50,265 bases of DNA from an uncultured Verrucomicrobiales bacterium (GTDB lineage: Bacteria; Verrucomicrobiota; Verrucomicrobiia; Verrucomicrobiales; Akkermansiaceae): positions 1-50,265 of the forward strand of contig CAZNVW010000001.1 in assembly GCA_964576595.1 (NCBI GenBank), given 5' to 3'. The translations under genes and the position numbers were made by a program. The notes beneath the pieces are model-generated. The model was not told where the DNA came from. It was given only the letters and a program-made list of their open reading frames with translations, and did not search any database. This document shows, piece by piece, positions 12,947 to 42,253 of the stretch. Numbering within the stretch: position 1 is the first letter of the stretch; each line of letters begins with the position of its first letter.

Positions 12947-13125
12947 AGCGCGTTTCTTCCCGGAGACAAAGCAGTCGTTCACTCCCAATCGTTATGACTA
13001 CGTCAAAAGGCCGATTGATCTTCCATTTATTTCAAATAACGGGAGGGAAAGACACTTTCCCCACACAAAGACTTGCAATTAAAGTGCAATCCTTCACTAT
13101 TTCCCGCCGTTCATTTGCCGTACCC

Positions 13126-14397
13126 ATGCCAGACGCACGTTTCCAACCCTTGACCGGATTCCGGGATTTCGCTCCCGAAGAATGTTCCATTCGCAATTAT
13201 ATTTTTGAAACATGGAAACGGGTCGCCCATCGTTATGGTTTTACGGAGTACGAGGCGCCCACGCTTGAGGCCACCGAGCTTTATCTAAAAAAAACCGGAG
13301 GCGAGCTTCCCACCCAGCTCTTCCGCTTTGAGGACCAGGGAGGCCGCGACGTCACCCTCCGCCCTGAGCTGACCGCCTCTCTCGGCCGTATCGCCGCCGC
13401 CTATCAGAGAGAATACGTCAAGCCTCTCAAGTGGTTTGAAATCGGCTGCTGCTTCCGCTACGAAAAGCCGCAAAAGGGACGCCTCCGCGAGTTTTATCAG
13501 TTCAATGCGGATATTCTCGGAGAGAAAAGCACCCACGCCGACGCCGAGCTGATCTCGCTCGCCATCGACTGCATGAGAGAGTTCGGCTTTCAGCCGGGCG
13601 ACTTCATTGTCCGGGTCTCCGACCGTGAAGCCTGGATCAAGTTTGCCTCGGAGCGAGGGATTGCCGAGGATCAAATCCCCACCTTCCTGGGCGTCGTGGA
13701 CAAGCTGGAGCGTGACCGGGAAGAGGATACGAACCGCAAGCTCGCGCCCTTCGGCCTTGTCCGATCGGAACTGGAGTCCTTCATCGCCGAGCCTCCCGCC
13801 GGCTCCTCCGAGCGCTACGAGGTGCTTCTTGAGGATCTGACGGCCCGCGGGCTCGAGGCCTATGCCTCGCTCGACCTCTCCATCGTCCGCGGCCTCGCCT
13901 ACTATACCGGACTGGTCTTTGAAATCTTCGATACATCCAAGAATCTCCGCGCCGTCGCCGGAGGCGGCCGCTACGACACGCTCGTCGCCGGCCTCTCCAA
14001 CAATGCGGCAGATCTCCCCGCCACCGGATTCGCCATGGGAGACGTCGTCATCCGCCACCTGATCGAGCAGACGCCCCATGCGAATGTCCTGCTGCAAAAC
14101 TACCTTGCCAGGGGCGCGTGCGACCTGTACATCGTCGTCGCCGACGAGACCCGCCGCAAGTACGCGCTCAGCCTCGCCTCCGTCCTGCGTGATCAGGGCC
14201 TGCGCATCGATCTGCCTCTCTCTCCGGCCAAATTCGGAGCACAGTTCCAGCGGGCGGAAAAACAGGGAGCCAAATACGCCATTATCGTCAACGAAGCCTC
14301 CCCCGAAACGTACGAACTGAAAAATCTCTCCACCCGGCAGGCCGAAAAATTCGATACCGAGACCCTGCTGGAAACTCTGTCCACCCTCTTTTCCTAA
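13126..14397 (+). CDS. hisS: Histidine--tRNA ligase
   Basis: ATG at 13126 gives MPDARFQPLTGFRDFAPEE. Class II motifs are RPELTASL, YQFNADILG and GGGRYDTLV. The upstream part of the listed ORF is not HisRS-like. Confidence 0.93.
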   Translation: MPDARFQPLTGFRDFAPEECSIRNYIFETWKRVAHRYGFTEYEAPTLEATELYLKKTGGELPTQLFRFEDQGGRDVTLRPELTASLGRIAAAYQREYVKPLKWFEIGCCFRYEKPQKGRLREFYQFNADILGEKSTHADAELISLAIDCMREFGFQPGDFIVRVSDREAWIKFASERGIAEDQIPTFLGVVDKLERDREEDTNRKLAPFGLVRSELESFIAEPPAGSSERYEVLLEDLTARGLEAYASLDLSIVRGLAYYTGLVFEIFDTSKNLRAVAGGGRYDTLVAGLSNNAADLPATGFAMGDVVIRHLIEQTPHANVLLQNYLARGACDLYIVVADETRRKYALSLASVLRDQGLRIDLPLSPAKFGAQFQRAEKQGAKYAIIVNEASPETYELKNLSTRQAEKFDTETLLETLSTLFS

Positions 14398-14418
14398 CCT
14401 CTTCTCAAAATTCCCGAT

Positions 14419-16218
<1,800 letters not shown>

Positions 16219-35992: not shown

Positions 35993-37066
35993 ATGCCGGA
36001 CTCCCTCCTATCCCTCACCCCAGAAGAGCTGACTGCCGCAGTCAAAGATCTGGGGCAGCCCGCCTTCCGGGCCAAGCAGATTCTGGAATGGGTCTGGAAA
36101 AAGCGCGTCTCCTCCTGGGACGAGATGCACAATGTCCCCGCCGCCCTGAGGAATGCCCTCGCCGAGCGTTACGTCCTCCGCACCCTGGCTCATGTCCAGA
36201 CGCAGGCGCAGGAATACGGGGGGACGCGAAAATTCCTCTACAGGCTGGATGACGGCCGCTATATCGAGTCCGTCCTGCTTCCGGCTTCCCAGGCCCTGTT
36301 TGGAGAAGACTCCGACCGCCAGACCCTGTGCGTCTCATCGCAAGTAGGCTGCGCCTTTGGCTGCCGCTTCTGCGCCTCCGGTCTGAACGGTTTTACCCGT
36401 GACCTGCGCGCGGATGAAATCGTCGAGCAAGTACTCCAGGCAGAGGCTCTCAGCGGGCAGAGGGTCAACAATCTTGTCTTCATGGGCATGGGCGAACCTC
36501 TCGCCAACTGGGACAACTTCACCCGCGCGCTGGATGCCATCAACGCGCCCTGGGGCCTTACGATCGGAGCCAGACATCTGACTCTCTCCTCCTCGGGCCA
36601 CGCTCCCCACATCCGCCGGCTGGCCGACGATCCCCGGCAAATCCGGCTCGCCATTTCCCTGCACGGAGCCACCAATGAAGTACGGGAGCAAATCATGCCC
36701 GTCAATAAAAAGTGGCCTCTGGAAACCCTGTTTGACGCGCTCGATTACTGGACGTCCCAGAAGAAGCAGATGATTACCTTTGAGTACATCCTGATCGACG
36801 GAGTCAACAACAGCCCGGAGCAAATGCGCCTGCTGGCCGCCCATGCCCGCCGCTTTCACGCCAAGGTCAACCTCATCCCCTACAATACGGTGGACGGCCT
36901 CCCCTGGAAACGCCCCTCAGAATCCGACTGCTACCAGTTCCGCGACGGTCTCATTCAGGCTGGCGTCTCCGTCACCATGCGAATGGAAAAGGGCGGCGAA
37001 ATTGACGCGGCCTGCGGCCAGCTGCGGCTCAAAAAGGAAACCGAGGAAGGTCTCATCGCCCCCTGA
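35993..37066 (+). CDS. rlmN: 23S rRNA/tRNA (adenine-C2)-methyltransferase RlmN (radical SAM)
   Basis: FRAKQILEWVW, CVSSQVGCAFGCRFCASG, NLVFMGMGEPLAN and the C-terminal AACGQL. Confidence 0.93.
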   Translation: MPDSLLSLTPEELTAAVKDLGQPAFRAKQILEWVWKKRVSSWDEMHNVPAALRNALAERYVLRTLAHVQTQAQEYGGTRKFLYRLDDGRYIESVLLPASQALFGEDSDRQTLCVSSQVGCAFGCRFCASGLNGFTRDLRADEIVEQVLQAEALSGQRVNNLVFMGMGEPLANWDNFTRALDAINAPWGLTIGARHLTLSSSGHAPHIRRLADDPRQIRLAISLHGATNEVREQIMPVNKKWPLETLFDALDYWTSQKKQMITFEYILIDGVNNSPEQMRLLAAHARRFHAKVNLIPYNTVDGLPWKRPSESDCYQFRDGLIQAGVSVTMRMEKGGEIDAACGQLRLKKETEEGLIAP

Positions 37067-37153
37067 TTTCTCAAATAAAAAAAAGATTTAAGACTTTTAA
37101 ATTCAAAATTTTTCTTGAACTTATTCAAAAATAAGTTATTTAGAAAAAATAAC

Positions 37154-37651
37154 ATGTTTCGTATTATTTTTACGTTAATCATCCTTACTCTTGTACTCAT
37201 ATGGCCCACAGTCCAAGCCCAAGAAGAAAATCAGGATCAATGCCGCATTGATTTTGTCGCTGTCATTTATGGAAGCCCACTTGGCGAAAAATCTATAGAA
37301 ATCAAAGGAGCAGAAGCCGCCTTAAAACAAGCGACTAAATTAATTGCCAATGAACTTATCAAACAAATAGTAAAAAAAGCAAGTAATATTCTTGATATGG
37401 CAGGAAACCTTTCTACCTCCAGATTTGCTCATCATGTCAATATTATCTACGCTTATCGCTTTATTCACAAAGGAAAGCCCACTAGCGAATGGCAATTACA
37501 CTCGCAAAATAAACTTTTATCTCAAGCTGGTACAGACTACTTTTTTTCTTTATCTGAATCCAAGGAAAAAGCTCTAGATAGAATCGCCAAATTAGAAGAA
37601 GAACTCAATACACAACTCGAAAGTCAGTGTGAAGAACACAATAATCCTTAA
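37154..37651 (+). CDS. Hypothetical secreted protein (about 165 aa), low-GC cassette gene 1
   Basis: ATG at 37154 gives MFRIIFTLIILTLVLIWPTVQA/QEE (signal peptide). The C-terminus is coiled-coil-like (KEKALDRIAKLEEELNTQLE). No family recognised. Confidence 0.55.
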   Translation: MFRIIFTLIILTLVLIWPTVQAQEENQDQCRIDFVAVIYGSPLGEKSIEIKGAEAALKQATKLIANELIKQIVKKASNILDMAGNLSTSRFAHHVNIIYAYRFIHKGKPTSEWQLHSQNKLLSQAGTDYFFSLSESKEKALDRIAKLEEELNTQLESQCEEHNNP

Positions 37652-37668
37652 TTAACTATATCATAAAT

Positions 37669-38094
37669 ATGAATCATACATTAATAGCAAATTCAGTTCT
37701 TGTAGCACTTTTCTTTACTTTTCCGGTAGTTTTGTCTAATGAAATTTCTACTGTAAAACGACAGAAATGTGCAGATACAGAACTTGGATTGTCCAGTACC
37801 CATCCAATAGTCATCACTGAAAAATCCATAGAAAAAGCTGAAAATTTTGCTAAAAAACACATTAAGGAAAACTATCCTGAATATAAAATTAAAGCCATAT
37901 GTATGATGGATAACATGAATAATGGACATTCCACACAAACATATACTCTACAAAAAACGGATAAAGATAATCCCGAAAACAAAAAAACAGTAAAACTTTA
38001 CTTTGATGTAGAAATTGCTATGTCTGAATTCAGAAAAAAGAACGCAAAGGAAATACAAGAACGATTAAAAAAGATAGAAATCATACAACAATAA
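37669..38094 (+). CDS. Hypothetical secreted protein (141 aa), low-GC cassette gene 2
   Basis: MNHTLIANSVLVALFFTFPVVLS/NE is a signal peptide. The gene starts 17 nt after gene 1. No family recognised. Confidence 0.55.
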   Translation: MNHTLIANSVLVALFFTFPVVLSNEISTVKRQKCADTELGLSSTHPIVITEKSIEKAENFAKKHIKENYPEYKIKAICMMDNMNNGHSTQTYTLQKTDKDNPENKKTVKLYFDVEIAMSEFRKKNAKEIQERLKKIEIIQQ

Positions 38095-38109
38095 AAATAG
38101 CAAAAAAGA

Positions 38110-39906
38110 ATGATAAAAATCTTCAGAAAAAATAGAATAAAATTCATATTTTTTTCTTTATTAATTTCTCTACTCACATTCACAGAAACTGCCAAAGCAG
38201 GCTTTGAATCAAATTTAACTTCTGTTTGTTCTACAGGAAATCCAAAAAAGATATCAGATTTCTGCTTTAAATATGTTTATCGTGATGTTCAGAAAAAAAG
38301 GCCAGACAAAAATAGTATTGAGAAATTTACCGCAGATAAAAATTTGCAGCTGGCTTGCTGGATGGGTCTTTATTTTAACTCCATCAAATGGAAGGGAATA
38401 TTTGCCGGAAGTGGATTAAAAGACAGAGAATTCATGCAATGGGTCATTGCGCACCCTGATATTTTTGAAAAGTTCTTATTCGCCAATCAACCAAATTCTA
38501 ATTCGTTTGATTTTCTCTATTTCCTCTGGTCAAAAGAAGGAAAAGAATTTCATCCTCCTTTATTGAATCTGGCTTTAGGGGCCGCACTGTGTTTAAATAT
38601 TTTATCTCAAGAAGAATGCGTAGCTCGATATAATTTTTACAAAAATTCATTCCTAGCACAAAAATTGTTTCTCCAATTCTCTACTTTAGAACCATGGGAG
38701 TATATATTGCTTCTAAAAGATACTGAATCAGTTGCAGGAGGGATCGAAACATTAGCATGGGGGCAAGCATATCTACTAGAAAAAAAGCAACATATTAATG
38801 AAATAAATGCAGCAAGCAAAGTGTGTGGGTTAATTCCCTACAGGAATATAAACGAAAGAGGCATTAGCATACATTCTGGCCTTGCTTTCTATGACAACAA
38901 ACAAACAACCCTTCAAATTTACACAACATACGGAGGTGTGTGCGGAGCTGTGTCCAAAGCTGCCTGTGGATTTTTAAAGTCCAGAGGAATTCCTTGTTAT
39001 ACTATAGGTCAGCCGGGACATTGTGCATTTATATGGAAACGAGCTGACGGAAGTTGGACTATTGGCAATAATATCTACGGATGGGCTTGGTCTAATGGTA
39101 ATCCACAGCTTCCTTGGAAAGGATCAACTTCTATTATAAAATCTATTTCGCAATTCAACGGATTGGAAGCCAAACGTTCCAACCTGTGTATGTATTTGTC
39201 AGAATTCTTACCTAATACCAACGAATCTATATTTTTTTTGGAACAGGCAATTGAATTTTACCCCAGTAACTACCGTGCTTGGAAATTATGGTTATCCACG
39301 CAAGTTAAACAAGCTAGTGAAATAAAGAAAAAAGATCTTGCCATTAAAATAAGGGGAAATTTCAAAAATGATCCCTTCATTGTTTCTGATCTTATTGATA
39401 GCCTTGTTCCTTTTAATTGGAAAAATACCAGTCCTTATGAAATTTATGCCCTTTTGTTGGATGAAAATGAATCTCCTGATTCAAACTCTCTCTACATGAA
39501 AAAAATATGGGATTTTGTTCGTGTTGATATCCCTGAACTTAAACTTTCTTATAACGAAAAAAATAAAAATATTTTTTTCAAATCCTGGAAGACTTATTAT
39601 AAAGACAATAATGTATCATTGAAAACAAAACGGCAAACTTGTTATGTTTTTCAAAAAATATTAATAGGACTTACGCAAAACGAAAAAACATATTCAAATT
39701 TTATAGAAACATATGAAGAAATTCTTAATATTTGGAATAATAAAGAACTAATGAGAGATGCCGATAAATTCATTCGATCACAATTAAACAATAACCAGCC
39801 TCTCTCTATTAGAAAAAAACTAATAAAATTCGGCATGCTCCTCACAGAAACACTCGAAGACATGAGAGGGAAAAAATTTTATATCGAAAAAAATCAGAAA
39901 ATTTAA
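38110..39906 (+). CDS. Secreted transglutaminase/PNGase-like cysteine-protease-fold protein with C-terminal helical (TPR-like) repeats
   Basis: Signal peptide MIKIFRKNRIKFIFFSLLISLLTFTETAKA. The core YGGVCGAVSKAACGFLKSRGIPCYTIGQPGHCAFIWKRADGSWTIGNN fits the G-x-C...GIP...H-x-x-x-W...W-x-x-G-D/N pattern of the transglutaminase-like core. The C-terminus includes FFLEQAIEFYPSNYRAWKLW. Confidence 0.6.
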   Translation: MIKIFRKNRIKFIFFSLLISLLTFTETAKAGFESNLTSVCSTGNPKKISDFCFKYVYRDVQKKRPDKNSIEKFTADKNLQLACWMGLYFNSIKWKGIFAGSGLKDREFMQWVIAHPDIFEKFLFANQPNSNSFDFLYFLWSKEGKEFHPPLLNLALGAALCLNILSQEECVARYNFYKNSFLAQKLFLQFSTLEPWEYILLLKDTESVAGGIETLAWGQAYLLEKKQHINEINAASKVCGLIPYRNINERGISIHSGLAFYDNKQTTLQIYTTYGGVCGAVSKAACGFLKSRGIPCYTIGQPGHCAFIWKRADGSWTIGNNIYGWAWSNGNPQLPWKGSTSIIKSISQFNGLEAKRSNLCMYLSEFLPNTNESIFFLEQAIEFYPSNYRAWKLWLSTQVKQASEIKKKDLAIKIRGNFKNDPFIVSDLIDSLVPFNWKNTSPYEIYALLLDENESPDSNSLYMKKIWDFVRVDIPELKLSYNEKNKNIFFKSWKTYYKDNNVSLKTKRQTCYVFQKILIGLTQNEKTYSNFIETYEEILNIWNNKELMRDADKFIRSQLNNNQPLSIRKKLIKFGMLLTETLEDMRGKKFYIEKNQKI

Positions 39907-40099
39907 TCTAAGAACATCTCAAACATTGAATCAAAAAATGCCTCACTGTTCCCGGTATCCTCAATAAGCCCCAATAGGCGGCATTCCGGTCAGGTTCGCC
40001 CTGTTTCCAGTCTTCCGGCTGTTTTTCCCTCCCGGAAATTATTTTTTGCAAGATTACTCCGGAAAGAGGCGTATGTTATATGTTAATTCATTTGAATCC

Positions 40100-42253
40100 A
40101 TGTCCTTTTTCTACTCCTTTCGTCCTTCAAGACATTCCACCGTTTTTTCTTCTCTGCTTTGCGGTATTGCGGGCGTTGCCCTGTCCCTTGCCCCGTCCCG
40201 GGCTGCCGCTGATGCAGTCTATCCTCCCGTTCCCAACAAGGCCCAGCTGAACTGGCAGGACATGGAGATGTATTCTTTTGTCCACTTCACGACCAATACT
40301 TTTACAGACAAGGAGTGGGGGTTTGGAGACGAGTCTCCCGACATGTTCAATCCGACGGATTACAATCCCGATCAAATTGTCAAAACGCTTGCGGACGCAG
40401 GTTTCAAGGGAGTCGTGCTGACCTGCAAACACCACGACGGCTTCTGTCTCTGGCCTACCAAAACCACCAAACACAGCGTCGCCTCGTCCTCCTGGAAAAA
40501 CGGCAAGGGCGATGTCGTCCGGGACTTCGCCAACGCCTGTAAAAAATACAATGTCAAATTCGGCGTCTACGTCTCCCCCTGGGACCGCAACCACCCCGAT
40601 TACGGTACACCGAAATATCTGGAGGTTTACAGACAGCAGCTCAAGGAGCTGCTGACCAACTACGGCCCCATATTCATGACCTGGCACGACGGAGCCAACG
40701 GCGGAGACGGCTACTATGGCGGCAAGAACGAAAAACGATCCATTGACCGGAGTACCTACTACGACTGGGCAAACACCTGGAAGGGCGTCAAGAAATACCA
40801 GCCGGGAGCCGTTATTTTTTCCGATGTCGGCCCGGATGTCCGCTGGGTAGGCAATGAGCACGGGGAGGCAGGCTACCCCTGCTGGGCCACTTACACCCCC
40901 CGCAGCAACAATCCCGCCTCTCCCACTCCCGCACCGGGGGTCGTGCATTATCAGGAGGGGCAAAACGGCACGGTTGACGGAAAATTCTGGATTCCGGCGG
41001 AGGTGGACGTCTCCATCAGACCGGGCTGGTTCTGGCACGCCTCGGAAAATGCAAAGGTCCGCACGCCGGAAAATCTTCTCAAACTCTACTTTGACAGTGT
41101 CGGCCGGGGAGCCGGACTCAATCTCAATGTGCCGCCCGACAGAAGGGGCCGAATTCATGAAGCCGACCAGGCGTCGCTAAAGGAGTTTGCCCGCCTCATC
41201 CGCGAGCTGTATTCCCGAAACTACGCGGAGGGAGCCTCCGTCACCAGCAGCGACGGGAAACAGGGGAGCAAGCCCGCCCGCATTCTCGACCGCAAACGCA
41301 CCTCCTACTGGATCGCAAAAGACGGCATGAAAAAAGCCGAGCTCCTGATTACCCTGCCGGAGAAAAGGAGTTTCGACGTGCTGCGTCTGGCGGAGCCCAC
41401 CCAGCTGGGGCAGAGAGTCCGCAAATTCTCCGTTCAATACAAGACGGACGCCGGGTGGCAGCCCTGGATCTCGGGCAGCAGCGTAGGCGCGCGCGTCATT
41501 CTGCAAGGGCCGATGATCACGACAGACCAGCTCCGCCTCTCCATTGACGAGGCCGCCGCCCCGCCCGCCCTCAGTGAGTTCTCCCTGTGGAAAAAACCGG
41601 TAATTCTTGCCGCGCCTGCCATCAGGGCCTCCCGTGAAGGCATGGTGACCCTTTCCGGCAGAGACGGGTTAAATGTCTTCTATACGCTGGACGGCTCGGA
41701 GCCGACGCAAAGCTCCACCGCCTATGCCGGAGCCTTCTCCCTGCCCCACGGAGGCACCGTCAAGGCCGTCGCCTACAGGGAAAGCTCGCCCTCGGCGGTG
41801 ACGACGGCCCAGATTCCCGTCCCGACCATCTCGTGGAAAGTCACCCGGGCGGAAGGCTCCGCCTCCGACCCCATGCGAATGATCGACGGCGATCCCTCTA
41901 CGCTCTGGCATACGCATGGGGAGCAGGAAATCGCCCCGCCCCAGACCGTTGATCTGGATATGGGCAGGGATACGCTGGTCTCCAAAGTCCTCTACACCCC
42001 CCGCAAGGACGGCAATACCAAGGGGATCGTCTCCCGGTACGAAGTTTATCTGAGCCGGAACGGGCAGGACTGGAACAAGGCCGCAGAAGGAGAATTCTCC
42101 AACATCAAGGCCAACCCGATCACGCAGGAGATCCTCCTGCCTGCGCCGCAATCCGCCCGCTATCTAAGATTTGTCGCCAAAGACGTCGTAGATGGACATC
42201 ATGTGAGTATCGCGGAGCTGGGGGTCGTCGAACCCCTGCCGGAAAAGAAATAA
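40100..42253 (+). CDS. Alpha-L-fucosidase (GH29) with C-terminal F5/8 type C (discoidin/CBM32-like) domains
   Basis: Signal peptide MSFFYSF...LAPSRAAADA. GH29 core segments are QLNWQDMEMYSFVHFTTNTF, GFKGVVLTCKHHDGFCLWPT and MTWHDGANGG. Discoidin-like segments include MRMIDGDPSTLWHT. Confidence 0.88.
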   Translation: MSFFYSFRPSRHSTVFSSLLCGIAGVALSLAPSRAAADAVYPPVPNKAQLNWQDMEMYSFVHFTTNTFTDKEWGFGDESPDMFNPTDYNPDQIVKTLADAGFKGVVLTCKHHDGFCLWPTKTTKHSVASSSWKNGKGDVVRDFANACKKYNVKFGVYVSPWDRNHPDYGTPKYLEVYRQQLKELLTNYGPIFMTWHDGANGGDGYYGGKNEKRSIDRSTYYDWANTWKGVKKYQPGAVIFSDVGPDVRWVGNEHGEAGYPCWATYTPRSNNPASPTPAPGVVHYQEGQNGTVDGKFWIPAEVDVSIRPGWFWHASENAKVRTPENLLKLYFDSVGRGAGLNLNVPPDRRGRIHEADQASLKEFARLIRELYSRNYAEGASVTSSDGKQGSKPARILDRKRTSYWIAKDGMKKAELLITLPEKRSFDVLRLAEPTQLGQRVRKFSVQYKTDAGWQPWISGSSVGARVILQGPMITTDQLRLSIDEAAAPPALSEFSLWKKPVILAAPAIRASREGMVTLSGRDGLNVFYTLDGSEPTQSSTAYAGAFSLPHGGTVKAVAYRESSPSAVTTAQIPVPTISWKVTRAEGSASDPMRMIDGDPSTLWHTHGEQEIAPPQTVDLDMGRDTLVSKVLYTPRKDGNTKGIVSRYEVYLSRNGQDWNKAAEGEFSNIKANPITQEILLPAPQSARYLRFVAKDVVDGHHVSIAELGVVEPLPEKK

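Follow-up and report, generated by a model that had tools for sequence, protein, structure and literature searches.

The window analysed here is a stretch of 50,265 nucleotides from an uncultured Verrucomicrobiales bacterium (contig CAZNVW010000001.1), and the gene of interest within it, named TGL here, is a complete open reading frame (ORF) on the forward strand (positions 38110-39906; 598 amino acids plus stop) that encodes a candidate Cys-His enzyme. A preliminary description of the locus, made from the sequence alone, had proposed a secreted protein with a transglutaminase- or PNGase-like core fused to helical repeats. The reading frame was recovered together with the peptide quoted for it, which corresponds to residues 274-321, and the gene is neither ordinary nor an artefact but a member of a large, unannotated and probably transglutaminase-fold Cys-His family. 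A gene identical to TGL has been called in a Logan contig, and one public assembly (SRR10912416) shows the genes in exactly the same arrangement. Three genes on one strand, of which TGL is the last, occupy a sharp low-GC island (roughly 37070-40000; GC 0.27-0.41 against ~0.6 in the flanks), the only such dip within the 50-kb window; the island sits between rlmN (35993-37066) and the gene for a GH29 fucosidase with F5/8-type-C domains (40046-42253). The two genes that precede it, ORFA (37154-37651, forward strand; 165 amino acids) and ORFB (37669-38094, forward strand; 141 amino acids), have signal-like N-termini suggestive of small exported proteins, and neither was matched in family and PDB searches.

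The N-terminus of TGL itself (residues 1-30, 38110-38199; MIKIFRKNRIKFIFFSLLISLLTFTETAKA before a Gly) combines five basic residues with a hydrophobic stretch of 12 residues, and A-K-A stands ahead of Gly31. These sequence features and the hydropathy fit a Sec signal, in line with the signal peptide that had been proposed, and there is no lipobox Cys. Related proteins of Clostridium perfringens and Bacillus start with comparable signal-like N-termini. The proposed nucleophile, Cys278 (TGC, 38941-38943), and the proposed general base, His304 (CAT, 39019-39021), one of only five His in the whole protein, lie at the codons originally assigned to them. The Asn-Asn pair suggested for the third catalytic position is likewise present (Asn320 and Asn321, AAT AAT, 39067-39072). 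The spacing of the motif had been described less exactly. The segment W316-T-I-G-N320 is as given, but Gly293-Ile-Pro follows Cys278 at 15 residues and not at about 20, and the supposed H-x3-W is actually H-x4-W, running from His304 to Trp309. These residues belong to a conserved core (residues 228-350, 38791-39159) marked by Y244, N248, Y261, GGVCGAVS, GIP, GQPGHCA, W309, W316, N320 and GW. A motif scan of the whole protein revealed no CxxC and no HExxH.

The breadth of the family was gauged with a profile of residues 228-350, run on a set of 1.84 billion cluster representatives (50%-identity clusters). At E<=1e-3 it returned 550 proteins, the longest of 2361 amino acids, and 182 of the matches were at E<=1e-10. 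By this measure the TGL core defines a family of at least 550 such clusters that has no Pfam or NCBIfam model, and whose members carry public names derived only from their accessory domains, such as ‘putative mucin/carbohydrate-binding domain-containing protein’ and ‘NPCBM/NEW2 domain-containing protein’. Over the best 145 representatives Cys278 is kept in 144/145, His304 and Gln301 each in 142/143, Gly293 in 144/144, Pro295 and Ala306 each in 141/143 and Tyr244 in 127/128. The conservation of Cys and His reaches down to ~20% overall identity and extends across phyla, and because both residues are so nearly invariant the Cys278-His304 motif is, on the evidence of these alignments, no chance pattern. 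Asn320 is retained in 115/136 representatives, otherwise being Tyr or Gln, and position 321 is variable (Asp 69, Asn 27, Gly 8), with Asp in about half of the family. Asn320 is therefore the likelier candidate for the third residue of a triad, and the ‘Asn-Asn’ noted initially is best read as the Akkermansia version of a family-wide ‘G-N-D’. Variation at the third residue is documented across the clan (PMC10318531). The possibility that Cys278 and Cys305 form a purely structural disulfide was considered and rejected, since Cys305 (kept in 129/143) is replaced in ~10% of members while Cys278 is retained.

Among the 29 closer homologues used for modelling the invariant positions include Y274-GGVCGAVS, G300-QPGHCA, W309, W316, I318-G-N320 and G324-W325. 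The nearest full-length relative of TGL is 61% identical and most are ~40% identical. The 172 word-indexed matches that bear a name are all ‘hypothetical’ Akkermansia proteins, with one spurious label among the close homologues (‘pre-mRNA 3'-end processing factor’), and several Akkermansia genomes contain two or three TGL paralogues. Given these Akkermansia names among homologues of the whole protein, and a GH29 fucosidase gene adjoining TGL, it was reasonable to suppose that the DNA comes from a mucin-degrading organism. Beyond Akkermansia, hosts of the family include Puniceicoccales, other Verrucomicrobiota, many Planctomycetota, Bacillus cereus-group strains (on large plasmids), C. perfringens, C. 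sardiniense, Eubacterium multiforme, Lactobacillus iners and Enterococcus. A eukaryotic member is found in the ctenophore Mnemiopsis leidyi (KAL5252589.1; P0174 / P0307 in our set), from a eukaryotic branch of the family that has galectin, core and F5/8-type-C domains. Contigs of 0.4-4 Mb, possibly from eukaryotic assemblies, carry several further members. Literature searches of the library available found no paper on the TGL family.

An AlphaFold2 model of TGL built on the 29 homologues has a mean predicted local distance difference test (pLDDT) score of 86.3 and a predicted template modelling score of 0.82. Helices take up residues 2-261 and 340-597, which bears out the helical flanks proposed for the protein. 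Between these, a predicted helix (277-291) begins at V277/C278, with pLDDT <50 just upstream, and so opens with the candidate nucleophile; it is followed by predicted strands at 296-301, 304-310 (of which His304 is the first residue) and 316-318, with Asn320 just past the third. The N-terminal all-alpha domain (residues 31-227, 38200-38790), delimited from the predicted secondary structure, is kept in distant members from residue ~81/106 onwards. The C-terminal alpha-solenoid (residues 351-598, 39160-39903) was delimited from predicted secondary structure together with weak repeat matches; its first repeats (residues ~370-430, including an NYRAW motif) are kept family-wide and the rest among Akkermansia homologues only. 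The description of this part as TPR-like holds in so far as it is helical and shows weak TPR, HAT and PPTA similarity (PPTA, HAT and TPR_14 each matched TGL under their cut-offs, and HAT_Syf1 matched 17/29 homologues), but no repeat hidden Markov model rose above its threshold. In tblastn searches the matches of distant relatives begin at query residues 81-173, and the stretch matched extends from ~81-110 to ~430. The conserved module therefore reaches beyond the core, taking in the helical domain on its N-terminal side and the first of the helical hairpins that follow.

Evidence that the core is transglutaminase-like comes from several comparisons. The Pfam family Transglut_core (PF01841) was matched by 23/54 diverse family cores (best E 7e-4) and Transglut_core2 by 3/54 (best E 2e-4); other Pfam families each appeared once among the 54 cores, leaving Transglut_core as the only recurrent family besides Transglut_core2. 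The family consensus matched Transglut_core at E=0.007 (17 bits). In a PDB profile search the GVC motif was aligned at E 0.9 with ERAGVC...IPAR in 3ISR, an entry that its depositors describe as a ‘transglutaminase-like putative cysteine protease’, so that the GVC cysteine falls on the catalytic-motif region of that protein, and a similar segment of 4XZ7 was aligned in the same way (E 0.5-0.9 for the two structures). From 120 genuine PF01841 proteins that were retrieved, 100 were compared with the family by hhalign, which gave P=4.3e-4 with Cys placed on Cys. The order helix(Cys)-strand-strand(His)-strand-Asn in the predicted model is the classical order of the clan. A regular-expression search of the fetched loci for canonical transglutaminase genes found none. 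Taken together, a transglutaminase-like fold for the core is probable but not established.

The nature of the substrate is suggested by the domains to which the module is joined. A domain scan was made of 115 longer representatives in two batches, 39 taken from the long proteins, a choice that favours fusions, and 76 with less bias of this kind. About one third of the long members carry lectin or carbohydrate-binding modules: ~35 of the 115 have F5/8-type-C (CBM32-like) domains, 9 Mucin_bdg and 5 NPCBM, and galectin, ricin-B, CBM5/12, SPRY and cell-wall and choline-binding anchors also occur. No recurring second catalytic domain was seen among the 115. The C. perfringens member is laid out as signal peptide, module and F5/8-type-C, and the Bacillus member as signal peptide, module, Mucin_bdg, Fn3 and CBM5/12. 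On the B. thuringiensis israelensis plasmid pAM65-52-1-360K (NZ_CP013276.1; our locus L089, 3710-8280) a family member (WP_000822719.1) lies 84 nt downstream of an M60 enhancin-like peptidase (WP_057187505.1), and the two proteins have in common a 287-aa Mucin_bdg-Fn3-CBM5/12 tail that is 89% identical, while their N-terminal modules are unrelated. This pair, the most telling case, has the look of a targeting cassette on which one catalytic head was recently exchanged for another. That such a cassette should carry two unlike heads argues that the module is an enzyme that acts at the same glycoprotein or chitin matrix, and this comparison of sequences supports a glycoconjugate substrate for the family. 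Mucin and mucosa specialists are among the hosts (Akkermansia, C. perfringens, L. iners and Enterococcus). The link of the family to glycoprotein degradation is strong but circumstantial.

The low-GC cassette ORFA-ORFB-TGL also occurs in a relative (locus L003 in our numbering) at a different chromosomal site, where its TGL is 61% identical. At five further Akkermansia loci, genes resembling ORFA or ORFB adjoin TGL paralogues that are more distant, and the gene order varies; ORFA/ORFB homologues beside TGL paralogues were recorded at L003, L004, L005, L007, L011, L014 and L017. What was observed is genetic linkage, and the products of ORFA and ORFB, predicted to be exported, may act on TGL as partners or inhibitors. 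TGL genes in Akkermansia are generally below the surrounding GC content, and the presence of multiple paralogues in lower-GC islands suggests an acquired, strain-variable trait. At another locus (L015, 2409-4499) a GH29 gene product 59% identical to that of the window adjoins a 31%-identical TGL paralogue. The borders of the island showed no flanking repeats, tRNA or insertion sequence features, AT-rich chance repeats being the only ones seen, and promoter and terminator scans stayed at background level. Scans with NCBIfam and PADLOC gave no match for the three island genes, and a known defence system, which was also considered, is accordingly unsupported. No conserved operon was found in the neighbourhoods of the Enterococcus, L. 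iners and Clostridium-like contigs. Two genes upstream of a Clostridium-like member there is a gene of the Asparaginase_2 family (L087, 1115-2077), which includes glycosylasparaginases; this is probably a coincidence. In Akkermansia biwaensis (AP025943.1; L002, 3065-4534) a 489-aa ORF lies upstream of a TGL paralogue and ends ...IICIEAAGLMEYAAG...WWDGHAYCIFESHVHDP..., a Cys...His...Asp-Pro pattern that resembles a transglutaminase core. This ORF has no Pfam match, and the four-gene block that holds the paralogue is lower in GC than its flanks. Elsewhere in the window, in a high-GC part, long ORFs overlap on opposite strands (13285-16200 on the reverse strand against 12994-14397 and 14419-16218 on the forward strand), as they also do at other places.

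The explanation that we favour, and regard as reasonably probable, is that TGL is an exported thiol hydrolase that acts on glycoproteins by means of a minimal Cys-His-Asn unit of the papain/transglutaminase type. The protein would be exported by the Sec route, at least to the periplasm, and possibly released. The catalytic unit would sit between the N-terminal all-alpha domain and the TPR/HAT-like alpha-solenoid, with residues ~100-430 forming the conserved module. Cys278, at the N-terminus of its helix, would provide the nucleophilic thiolate, His304, opening the second strand of a short three-stranded sheet, would act as the base, and Asn320, just past the third strand, would orient His304 to complete a papain-style triad. 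The thiolate would then attack an amide carbonyl of the glycoprotein to give a thioester acyl-enzyme that is hydrolysed by water, the amide being either a peptide bond near glycans or the glycan-asparagine amide. The evidence for a glycoconjugate substrate suits several points of attack equally well: the peptide bond, the amide joining glycan to asparagine, the side chain of a glutamine, or an ester. More speculatively, the aromatic residues around the core (Y244, Y261, W309, W316 and W325) may line a sugar-binding cleft. In other lineages lectin and carbohydrate-binding modules would bring the module to its substrate. The Akkermansia proteins have no such modules, and ORFA and ORFB, often alongside, are perhaps the partners or inhibitors of the enzyme there.

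Several results weigh against this explanation. In the profile check that had been suggested, TGL remained below the Transglut_core gathering threshold of 23 bits (the whole protein scored 12.7 bits, its core 15.2 and the family consensus 17.0), and no match reached the threshold of a curated profile. The hhalign alignment to PF01841 has a probability of 34% and covers 30 columns, comprising the Cys-helix and the G-[IV]-P-A strand, and ends before His; neither global nor relaxed hhalign extended it reliably to His. Against 91 PNGase-family sequences hhalign gave P=0.042 and a probability of 1.2%. Direct sequence and profile searches of the PDB with the whole protein, the Akkermansia alignment, the core alignment and the consensus returned noise or matches at E >= 0.5. 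Residues 262-276, directly before Cys278, are unreliable in the model (pLDDT <50), and the core modelled alone gives a poor model (pLDDT 52). A Foldseek search with the whole model (PDB and BFVD) gave weak TPR/Sel1-type matches, the best being to TPR proteins (E >= 0.018, template modelling scores ~0.14), and no papain or transglutaminase fold; the isolated core likewise gave no papain or transglutaminase match, the quality of its model making its matches meaningless, and a clan member at E <1 was absent from both searches. The transglutaminase/PNGase-like core proposed in the preliminary description is partly supported: the recurrence of Transglut_core, the PF01841 hhalign comparison and the order of the structural elements all favour it, but none passes a formal threshold. 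With regard to the substrate, the less biased batch of 76 proteins shows carbohydrate-binding modules in ~20-25%, and the Akkermansia members have none, so that their glycoprotein target is transferred from distant relatives.

These same results leave some room for a Cys-His enzyme of a fold outside the papain/transglutaminase clan that has arrived at the motif by convergence, for example a thiol-dependent esterase or acyltransferase that modifies glycans. All of the evidence for the clan is sub-threshold, Foldseek found nothing for the core, and the conserved module is far larger than a transglutaminase core and contains invariant aromatic residues (the five named above) typical of sugar-binding sites. 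We nevertheless consider an unrelated fold unlikely, as the recurrence of Transglut_core among the family cores has no rival family, Cys falls on Cys in three independent comparisons, and the order of a helix and then three strands agrees with the clan.

A glycoamidase of the PNGase type would use the Cys-His-Asn centre to cut the Asn-GlcNAc (N-acetylglucosamine) amide of N-glycans and free whole glycans. To our knowledge PNGase is the only transglutaminase-fold enzyme that acts on glycans. The minimal strand-turn-His hairpin of TGL is as in PNGase, and the Cys-to-His and His-to-Asn spacings are 26 and 16 in TGL and 27 and 17 in PNGase core sequences, given the PNGase residues that we take to be catalytic. 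In an extended, low-confidence hhalign alignment His is placed on His, and N320 lies opposite what is presumably the catalytic Asp of PNGase. The galactose-type lectin fusions (CBM32-like and galectin) would also suit complex N-glycans. The profile comparison with PNGase is, however, weaker than that with bacterial TgpA-like proteins, and a further hhalign run against a two-sequence PNGase profile (probability 7%) relied on a profile too thin to inform. PNGase has a zinc-binding Cys cluster, and TGL lacks CxxC; moreover the fusions to Mucin_bdg and CBM5/12 and the pairing with M60 point to mucin or chitin matrices and not to N-glycans. On balance a PNGase-type activity appears quite unlikely.

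It is also conceivable, though in our judgement distinctly improbable, that TGL is a true transglutaminase or a protein-glutamine deamidase that cross-links or deamidates surface or host proteins. Cys-His-(Asp/Asn) chemistry also allows acyl transfer to amines or water, the best profile matches are to transglutaminase-like families, and the protein is predicted to be exported. On the other hand, breakdown is the better match for the catabolic hosts and for the tail in common with an M60 peptidase, itself a degradative enzyme, and the sequence offers nothing to tell transfer from hydrolysis. The established view is that most bacterial transglutaminase-like proteins are hydrolases (PMC10318531), which also speaks against this possibility.

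That TGL is a non-catalytic binding or scaffold protein, in which a transglutaminase-like remnant and helical repeats bind ligands in the manner of the inactive transglutaminase-like domains known from Rad4/XPC, is very hard to credit: Asn rather than Asp stands at the third position and most of the protein is helical repeat, but Asn is the normal third residue in papain, the near-absolute conservation of Cys278, His304, Gln301 and the glycines across phyla at 20% identity is difficult to explain without catalysis, and in multidomain members the core is the only candidate catalytic module joined to lectin domains.

Extending the favoured explanation of TGL as a thiol hydrolase to the family as a whole leads to a bolder and more tentative proposal, namely that these proteins are previously unrecognised extracellular thiol enzymes that degrade or deglycosylate mucin-type glycoproteins, either ‘cysteine mucinases’ or bacterial transglutaminase-fold glycoamidases. 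They may work alongside M60 metallopeptidases in gut and mucosal bacteria (Akkermansia, C. perfringens, L. iners and Enterococcus), in insect pathogens (on B. thuringiensis plasmids) and in some eukaryotes, with ORFA and ORFB as dedicated partners or inhibitors in Akkermansia. The bacterial mucin-cleaving proteases known to us are all metallo- or serine enzymes. If the proposal is true, a widespread thiol catalytic module on mucin-, galactose- and chitin-binding modules would be a new enzyme class, with a bearing on host-mucus turnover, vaginal and gut colonisation and attack on the insect peritrophic matrix, and the at least 550 clusters now called ‘hypothetical’ or named after accessory domains would gain a name and a testable active site. 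A strain-variable TGL would be relevant to differences among Akkermansia species and phylogroups. The large family, the link to carbohydrate binding and the low-GC cassette had all escaped the preliminary description.

The known systems closest to TGL include the bacterial transglutaminase-like putative cysteine proteases (PF01841; 3ISR, TgpA-type). In these too a helix begins at the G-x-C motif and leads to a G-[IV]-P-A strand, after which successive strands bear the His and then an acidic or amide residue, and they provide the best, albeit sub-threshold, profile matches. TGL differs from them in falling under the Pfam cut-off, in having the loop from the first strand to His cut to Q-P-G, in having H-C-A for H-A-W and Asn for Asp, and in a core that lies inside a ~330-aa conserved helical module of a protein predicted to be exported. 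With PNGase (yeast Png1, NGLY1; PDB 1X3W, 2F4M) TGL has in common the minimal strand-turn-His hairpin, the near-identical spacings and a link to glycans. CxxC zinc pairs are a defining feature of PNGase, and TGL lacks these zinc-site motifs, has Asn in place of Asp and gives only P=0.04 in the profile comparison; PNGase is a cytosolic, eukaryotic enzyme with PUB/PAW domains, whereas TGL is bacterial and apparently exported. Proteins of the SirB1/YchA type resemble TGL in that a transglutaminase-like unit is followed directly by TPR-like repeats, a resemblance also reflected in the few family cores that match Transglut_core2. TGL itself has no significant match to them, and proteins of the SirB1 kind reside in the cytoplasm and mostly have no catalytic Cys. 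The M60/enhancin proteins have the same accessory modules as relatives of TGL (Mucin_bdg, CBM32-like, NPCBM and CBM5/12), a similar range of host-associated organisms and, in B. thuringiensis, the adjacent gene with the 89%-identical tail. Here the relationship is one of analogy and not of membership, since the catalytic module is unrelated, with no Peptidase_M60 match, no HExxH and a thiol in place of zinc. Papain (clan CA) differs from TGL in its propeptide and L/R-domain layout, neither of which TGL has, C1 peptidase similarity is not detectable in TGL, and the Gln of TGL adjoins His instead of preceding Cys, although Gln301 could, speculatively, serve an oxyanion-hole-type role. What TGL would have in common with papain is the arrangement of the active site itself, in which Cys opens a helix, a strand carries the His and Asn takes the third position.

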